A stretch of 64,000 nucleotides of DNA from Escherichia coli (GTDB lineage: Bacteria > Pseudomonadota > Gammaproteobacteria > Enterobacterales > Enterobacteriaceae), in NCBI RefSeq assembly GCF_003790525.1, contig NZ_CP033633.1; one strand, written 5' to 3'. The notes beneath the pieces are model-generated. The model did no database searches and was not told the DNA's origin. It worked only from the letters and a program-made list of their open reading frames with translations. Of this stretch, positions 39,765-40,594 are shown piece by piece; position 1 is the first letter of the stretch, and each line of letters starts with the position of its first letter. The translations under genes and the position numbers were made by a program.

Positions 39765-40006
39765 TTTTCACTCAGCTATGAACAACTGACCCGGTTTGCG
39801 GAACGACGCATCCGGGAATGCAATCTGGACAGCCAGGGCGCGATTTATCTCTGCGAGTCAGCCAAAGCCGGAGCCGTGCTGATCTTCTGGCATGAACTGG
39901 CCATAAATGGCTATACCTCAATGAATGCCATAAAAAGACAGGAGATCATTGACGCCGACCATCAGCGCCTCAGAAAGCTTATCTGGCCGGAGGATGACTG
40001 GAAATG
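39765..40006 (+). pseudogene. 3' fragment of an unknown gene truncated by IS629
   Basis: Frame open from the IS629 boundary: ...FSLSYEQLTRFAERRIRECNLDSQGAIYLCESAKAGAVLIFWHELAINGY...WPEDDWK stop; no start. Confidence 0.4.
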
Positions 40007-40594
40007 ACCCAGAGCCGCCGACCGTCGCCACTGCAACGGAGAGTGCTGATTGTGCTGGCTGCCCTTGATGAAAAACGGCCAGGCCCCGTGCTGACGCGGG
40101 ACATAGAACGGGTGCTGGAGCGAAGCGGGGAAGCCCCGGTCTACGGGCCAAACCTGCGCGCCTCCTGCCGTCGTCTGGAGGATGCCGGATGGCTGCGTAC
40201 CCTGCGCGCTCCGAACCTGCAGCTGGCAGTGGAACTGACGGACGCCGGCCGGGCCGTGGCACAGCCTCTGCTGCTGGCAGAACAGGACCGCCTCCGGGCA
40301 GAACAGCGTGCGGCAGAAGTCGTCGTACTGCCGCTGGTCCCGGCAGCAGGTCTGCCCGCAGACGGCACTTCTGCCACTGATCTGGCGGTGGAGCTGAACG
40401 GCATGACGTATCAGGCCTGCCGCGAGGATTTTGTGGTACGTCTCGACGGCAGCACCTGTCTGCAGTTATGGAATAAAGAAGGCAGGGTGGTACGGCGGGA
40501 GGGCGATCCGCTGGAAGTGGCGCAGTGGCTGCAGGCCTGTCACGATGCCGGAATGGAGGTTCGTGTACAGGTTAATGAAAGCGTCACCCCGTAA
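40004..40594 (+). CDS. hypothetical protein with N-terminal winged-helix-like segment (GC-rich)
   Basis: 196 aa; LQRRVLIVLAALDEKRPGPVLTRDIERVLERSG; start overlaps the stop of the truncated upstream ORF (ATGA). Confidence 0.5.
   Translation: MTQSRRPSPLQRRVLIVLAALDEKRPGPVLTRDIERVLERSGEAPVYGPNLRASCRRLEDAGWLRTLRAPNLQLAVELTDAGRAVAQPLLLAEQDRLRAEQRAAEVVVLPLVPAAGLPADGTSATDLAVELNGMTYQACREDFVVRLDGSTCLQLWNKEGRVVRREGDPLEVAQWLQACHDAGMEVRVQVNESVTP

Follow-up and report, generated by a model that had tools for sequence, protein, structure and literature searches.

A plasmid ydfA-ydeA operon split and inverted by IS629 in Escherichia coli, with a model of autorepression by YdeA

What are the two overlapping reading frames that lie against an IS629 element at positions 39765-40594 of a 64,000-nucleotide stretch of Escherichia coli DNA (NCBI RefSeq assembly GCF_003790525.1, contig NZ_CP033633.1; the whole stretch is called the window here), and how did they lose their 5′ end? 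A sequence-only reading regarded both frames as GC-rich and as the remnant of a regulator-containing operon that was acquired from a high-GC donor and cut by IS629. As the probable account, we propose that the locus is the promoter-less distal half of a plasmid operon, ydfA-ydeA, which was split and inverted through IS629, and that in the intact module YdeA acts as an autorepressor.

Results

Two halves of one operon

The upstream frame (plus strand, 39765-40007) consists of codons 7-86 and the stop codon of ydfA, matches the corresponding part of intact YdfA (residues 7-86) at 95% identity and lacks start codon, ribosome-binding site and promoter. It is open from the end of IS629 (39763, ...GGTTCA) to a TGA at 40005-40007, with no canonical start codon. 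Within an ATGA at 40004-40007 this TGA overlaps the ATG of ydeA, an intact 196-residue open reading frame on the same strand (40004-40594); reading of the sequence thereby confirms the truncated frame, the 196-residue frame and the junction described earlier. The RefSeq protein WP_032353703.1 (86 residues; window 39747-40007, NZ_CP029742) starts at an ATT inside the terminal inverted repeat of IS629. It is an IS-ydfA chimeric annotation artefact, and its agreement with the true YdfA length of 86 residues is coincidental.

The missing 5′ part of ydfA is located about 20 kb away. IS629 copy 1 (38454-39763, 1310 bp, terminal repeats read) carries the transposase genes orfA and orfB on the minus strand and abuts ydfA with its orfA-proximal end, followed by GTT at 39764-39766. 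Copy 2 (58902-60211, plus strand, 1310 bp) is oriented oppositely and is identical to copy 1 as its reverse complement (0 differences). Beyond its end the sequence reads AACACCCTTTCTTCATCCAT...; this is ATGGATGAAGAAAGGGTGTT in reverse complement, which in alignment with the intact copy of pSA186_3 represents the first 20 nt of ydfA (60212-60231, minus strand); these include the first six codons (60214-60231) and, as AAC at 60212-60214, the second copy of the GTT. Joined with a single GTT, the two flanks reproduce exactly the intact sequence GAAAGGGTGTTTTCACTC of pSA186_3. A target duplication of 3 bp is as expected for an IS3-family element. These junctions show that IS629 inserted after nucleotide 20 of ydfA, duplicating GTT, and that recombination between the two IS629 copies then inverted about 19 kb. 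The operon was therefore rightly described as cut by IS629. The term remnant holds in so far as the start and the promoter of ydfA are absent from the site, but all that is missing there are the promoter and 17 nt of unique coding sequence, and these are kept, inverted, at 60212 to about 60440.

The displaced upstream region (60232 to approximately 60440, minus strand) points into IS629 copy 2 and was revealed by a motif search with hits at 60307 and 60343, a pair of operator-like sites at a distance of 36 bp. It contains three slightly degenerate, inverted palindrome copies (60270-60359), namely O1 (60343-60359), O2 (60307-60323) and O3 (60270-60286), at −128, −92 and −55 from the ydfA ATG. 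No such palindromes adjoin the ydfA remnant, where IS629 abuts codon 7.

The order of events follows from plasmid NZ_CP029742, of which positions 3159-8068 match window 63807-58898 in reverse and positions 6755-15787 match window 38454-47486 directly. This plasmid has the simple, un-inverted insertion, so that insertion preceded the inversion between the IS629 copies. CP119733 and CP119749 match the window over IS629 copy 1 and both its flanks (31919-50000, in three joined pieces, the record being 2.3 kb longer), which argues against an assembly artefact. At the other pair of IS629 flanks (GAG versus AGC) the expected duplication was looked for and not found. A 64-bp IS629-adjacent deletion relative to CP024856 was considered as well and is ruled out, as the 20 nt absent from the site are present at 60212 together with the GTT/AAC duplication. 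In plasmids of the CP024856 type (L001, 8040-8112), another IS629, inserted independently and oriented alike, sits within O3, 64 bp upstream of the window site. In PLSDB this O3-type junction occurs in 486 plasmids, the window-type junction in about 6 and the uninterrupted 5′ region in 1,918; IS629 disrupts about 20% of the E. coli-type ydfA-ydeA copies.

The homology that usually continues downstream of ydeA, common to the ybaA and ibfA contexts, ends exactly at the ydeA stop codon, and AT-rich DNA (40595-41099) extends from there to a gene for a phytase-like esterase (41100-42473). The same junction of ydeA with AT-rich DNA is found in an Escherichia albertii plasmid (93.7% identity). On the other side of IS629 copy 1, an apparent orfA of another IS3-family element (38148-38453) runs into the copy, which provides its stop codon, and IS1414-like fragments are repeated at 37247-38031, 42493-43269 and 28363-29683. 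On its promoter side, the displaced 5′ end of ydfA is flanked by ccdA, ccdB and a tyrosine recombinase gene (62378-63725). A tyrosine recombinase or integrase is present on the ydfA promoter side in the other plasmids examined too, together with ccdAB in NZ_CP029742, which places the module in a plasmid maintenance region.

A common plasmid gene pair

The homology searches found ydfA-ydeA in thousands of plasmids. By DNA search, the pair is present in 3,900 of 72,556 PLSDB plasmids (about 5%), mostly conjugative IncF and IncI plasmids of Escherichia, Klebsiella, Salmonella and Shigella. In protein searches, the full-length window protein has 96-98% identity to the clusters P0003 and P0004, which comprise thousands of sequences, all named ‘hypothetical’; the names YdeA (196 residues) and YdfA (86 residues) stem from some UniRef entries. 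At 50% identity, the YdeA family forms 220 clusters among 1.84 billion representatives. In the GTDB genome set, a scan that used a narrower alignment gave 24 relatives, all of them from Enterobacterales or probable contaminants. The 44-68 kb region of the F plasmid, checked as a home of the pair, gave no match.

Neither protein receives a function call from Pfam, NCBIfam, PADLOC or PHROGs, and neither resembles par, stb or res plasmid maintenance genes by sequence or profile. Rather than fragments of a well-known maintenance gene, the two are long-annotated ‘conserved hypothetical’ genes, as in the ColV-Ia plasmid pS88, where ydfA and ydeA adjoin an acetyltransferase gene (pS88108-110). The window shares with pS88 and pUA1135 the same genes at 96-98% protein identity with the same ATGA overlap, and with pS88 the acetyltransferase neighbour on the promoter side. 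It differs from both in that ydfA is cut after nucleotide 20 and its 5′ part lies inverted 20 kb away, and in that the DNA beyond the ydeA stop codon is unlike the ybaA or ibfA contexts. The locus is thus an ordinary IS-broken accessory operon of a very common regulator module.

In the mosaic pairs of loci L017 and L035 (5747-6588), identity to the window protein is 96% for YdeA, whereas the adjacent YdfA reaches only about 60%, which implies recombination between ydfA and ydeA. Divergent YdeA homologues also occur singly, without ydfA. Since divergent homologues of about 200 residues stop where the short form stops, the 196-residue YdeA is a complete unit and no truncation. Family members range from 169 to 214 residues, chiefly through the linker between the two domains described below, and a 21-nt (seven-residue) indel relative to L001 (window 40305-40325) falls into this low-confidence part of YdeA.

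Predicted structures of YdeA and YdfA

The AlphaFold2 model of YdeA (pLDDT 85.8) displays a winged helix-turn-helix fold at the N terminus, in keeping with the winged-helix-like segment noted before. Residues 1-105 comprise the winged helix (helices 9-24, 31-40 and 48-60, with the wing strands at 64-78) and, at 80-104, a long helix. Between this part and a β-rich C-terminal domain (about 126-196) lies a linker of low confidence (about 110-125); the domain has five strands within 127-167, then a helix (169-181) and one more strand (186-190). YdeA remains below every Pfam gathering threshold: MarR_2 scores 15.8 bits (E=0.016; cutoff 27), PaaX 16.8 bits (E=0.0079; cutoff 24.8) and AbiEi_4 15.1 bits (E=0.025; cutoff 25). 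A profile search of the PDB connects it to MarR at E=0.005, and TubR, at rank 25, is one among many generic winged-helix neighbours. A role of YdeA as a centromere-binding protein of a partition system was rejected, as the NTPase partner is absent in every context.

The model thus predicts for YdeA the winged helix-turn-helix fold of MarR, PadR and HxlR repressors. It differs from these in missing all Pfam cutoffs, in its extra β-rich C-terminal domain of about 75 residues, found nowhere else in the searches run, and in its pairing, within Enterobacterales, with an 86-residue helical partner. Searches for relatives of this domain beyond its own family (a profile against PDB sequences, 19 members singly against Pfam, and a profile against a set of 5.8 billion proteins) returned noise or same-family fragments, and no Pfam match recurred among members at E≤10. 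Neither WYL nor any other sensor domain was detected by Pfam. For intact YdfA a three-helix bundle is predicted (pLDDT 84), and a fold search gave generic or designed helical bundles only, with no informative neighbour. A HEPN-like toxin motif in YdfA was discarded: R64 and H72 are seven residues apart, and H72 is not conserved.

Palindromes at the ydfA promoter

In intact copies (pSA186_3, a Klebsiella IncR plasmid and metagenomic contigs), the AT-rich 150 nt 5′ of ydfA comprise three copies of a unit of roughly 36 bp, each centred on a 17-bp palindrome of the form ATCAY-N7-RTGAT. The palindromes are positioned at −129/−128, −93/−92 and −56/−55 from the ydfA start, 36-37 bp apart; the best of them, AAAATCATATC-n-GATATGATTTT, has perfect 11-bp arms. 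Exact matches to the motif number 39 in 298 kb of related loci. Thirty-three of these are situated within 200 nt upstream of a gene start, where about one is expected by chance, nearly all at −129, −93 or −56 from the start of ydfA. About 20 loci share the three positions, which are kept in Citrobacter, Enterobacter, Klebsiella, Raoultella, Pluralibacter, Buttiauxella and Phytobacter, even at 36-47% YdfA identity. A stand-alone ydeA homologue without ydfA (L013, 29% identity) has ATCACCCGATGCGTGAT at −69.

A transcription start has been predicted by BProm 69 nt upstream of ydfA (PMC12111858). By eye we placed a candidate promoter, TTAAAT-16-TATTAT, 5′ of ydfA, which a consensus promoter scan did not call. 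O2 covers the putative −10 box and O3 is located just downstream of the predicted transcription start. This arrangement suggests that YdeA represses its own promoter via the palindromes; alternatively, the palindromes could serve a different factor, of plasmid or host origin. A promoter-like site, CTGACA-18-TATGAT (10/12; window 60257-60286), on the plus strand and against the direction of ydfA, overlaps O3 and is directed toward a hexapeptide acyltransferase gene (60530-61012). The operator array may hence control a divergent promoter pair.

Genes behind the pair

The DNA following ydeA varies between plasmids. IncI-gamma and IncR plasmids carry ibfA, which encodes an AAA ATPase, and a ProQ/FinO-like gene; ColV/Ia-type IncF plasmids have ybaA (DUF6404) on the opposite strand and colicin Ia immunity; a Klebsiella IncFIB/FII plasmid has several small hypothetical genes and Hha; and in Edwardsiella an Rpn nuclease gene follows. 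In a long form (L006, 7744-10407), four translationally coupled genes encode YdfA (86 residues), a YdeA of 417 residues with a C-terminal extension of about 220 residues, a DUF6884 protein (YaaA-like, DNA-binding) and an SNase nuclease with a signal peptide. This form is found in Citrobacter and Enterobacter contigs (L020, L022) and metagenomic contigs (L006-L009), and in parts in Buttiauxella (L018) and Pluralibacter (L026). No co-oriented cargo follows ydeA in the window, the phytase-like esterase gene being 500 nt away. A ProQ/FinO-family gene of the window (24236-24817, minus strand) is 65% identical to the gene after ibfA in the ydfA-ydeA-ibfA operon and is unlinked to ydeA here.

In the IncI1 plasmid pUA1135, whose ibfA is homologous to that of R64, RT-PCR demonstrated co-transcription of ydfA, ydeA, ibfA and the proQ-like gene, and the abortive infection of a P22-like phage is due to ibfA alone (PMC12111858). 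Deletion of the whole operon has about the same phage phenotype as deletion of ibfA only (PMC12111858), so that the ydfA-ydeA pair is not needed for that defence. In complementation the whole operon performs slightly better than ibfA alone, with an EOP of 0.01 versus 0.05 (PMC12111858).

Alternative readings of the locus

A recent import of the operon from a high-GC organism, followed by truncation and decay, appears very improbable to us. It accords with the composition of ydeA, which at 64.5% GC (GC1 0.79, GC3 0.67; window mean 50%) is the highest-GC credible gene in the window, approached by iron-transport genes at 48814-51856 (0.60-0.64); in 300-nt windows GC is maximal at 40000-40400 (0.68). 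The ydfA remnant, however, has a GC content of only 51.4%, and the ydfA promoter region 36-41%, so that the earlier description of both frames as GC-rich applies to ydeA and fails for ydfA. The excess in ydeA derives largely from first codon positions and hence is driven by amino-acid composition. Moreover, it is confined to ydeA in the other Enterobacterales lineages tested as well (Citrobacter, Phytobacter, Raoultella and Klebsiella-type copies), with 0.63-0.69 for ydeA and 0.48-0.56 for ydfA. Further points against import are the narrowness of the family, with its 220 representative clusters, its named genome hosts, which are all Enterobacterales, and the intactness of ydeA, near-identical to thousands of copies. 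The proposed high-GC donor is therefore not supported: no high-GC host turned up in the genome scan, we see no evidence for a recent import of ydeA, and a foreign origin, if any, would be ancient.

Two functional alternatives were weighed, neither of which we favour. The pair might be a toxin-antitoxin-like addiction module with reversed gene order, in which YdfA is the toxin and YdeA a DNA-binding antitoxin that neutralizes it via its C-terminal domain; in the window the toxin would then be inactivated and the antitoxin left without its partner. Such a module would agree with the two genes of the operon overlapping at an ATGA and with the palindromic putative operators, typical of toxin-antitoxin autoregulation, as well as with its company of ccdAB, vapBC, parDE and relE genes on plasmids, the mosaic pairs with unequal identities and the presence of IS629 in the 5′ end of the module in at least 486 plasmids. 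YdeA also resembles AbiEi-type antitoxins of type IV systems in its predicted N-terminal winged helix joined to a C-terminal domain, in the inverted repeats in its own promoter and in the weak AbiEi_4 match, but this match remains below its cutoff and no AbiEii nucleotidyltransferase partner accompanies YdeA in any context seen. Given that YdfA belongs to no toxin family in Pfam, NCBIfam, PADLOC or PHROGs, that divergent YdeA homologues exist alone and that the operon was deleted without reported difficulty (PMC12111858), we judge this module decidedly unlikely. Somewhat less doubtful, yet still unlikely, is a dedicated sensor-regulator akin to BrxR or CapW that holds ibfA or the DUF6884-SNase genes off until the C-terminal domain or YdfA senses a signal. 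Like BrxR and CapW, YdeA is a predicted winged-helix protein at the head of operons with defence genes: the pair is directly 5′ of ibfA and the proQ-like gene and co-transcribed with them, in the long form translational coupling extends to DUF6884 and a secreted SNase, and the difference in EOP noted above points the same way. Unlike those regulators, YdeA has no detected WYL or other sensor domain, and its defence cargo is facultative. Most E. coli IncF plasmids lack co-oriented cargo, as does the window, the next gene being ybaA on the opposite strand or the phytase-like esterase; in addition, PADLOC returned no match and the defence functions without the pair (PMC12111858).

Discussion

On the basis of these results, we prefer the reading of the locus as the distal half of an IS629-split operon, together with the following model for the intact module. 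YdeA would be a dimeric winged-helix protein of the MarR/PadR type, and its dimers would bind the three ATCAY-N7-RTGAT palindromes distributed across the ydfA promoter. Bound YdeA is expected to repress its own operon and the cargo transcribed behind it, which is ibfA with the proQ-like gene in IncI and IncR plasmids or the DUF6884-SNase pair in the long form. YdfA, a small helical partner, would be produced in coordination with YdeA by virtue of the ATGA overlap, and both YdfA and the family-specific C-terminal domain of YdeA probably modulate repression.

In the window, ydfA appears to be inactivated. Its neighbour ydeA keeps its own Shine-Dalgarno sequence, GGAGGA; no σ70-like site was found in the window between IS629 and the ydeA start, and the transposase genes of IS629 are directed away from ydeA. 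With ydfA dead and ydeA devoid of a recognizable promoter, the module is most likely silent here. Transcription from the orphaned promoter probably proceeds without repression into IS629 copy 2, in antisense to its transposase genes. The truncated reading frame and the isolated AT-rich segment 20 kb from it are the halves of one operon, and together they record an IS629 insertion followed by an inversion.

Few unannotated gene pairs on IncF, IncI and IncR plasmids are as common as ydfA-ydeA. A broader notion, which we regard as unlikely, is that the three-operator ydfA-ydeA unit is a portable sensor-regulator cassette, in which the YdeA C-terminal domain and YdfA detect a signal, for example infection by a phage or the entry of a plasmid, and switch on variable cargo (ibfA, the DUF6884-nuclease pair). 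If true, the cassette would constitute a new regulator family for plasmid-borne defence. Its position heading the ibfA defence operon makes the pair a candidate regulator of plasmid-borne phage defence, and the operator motif and the winged-helix assignment provide a directly testable hypothesis for its function.
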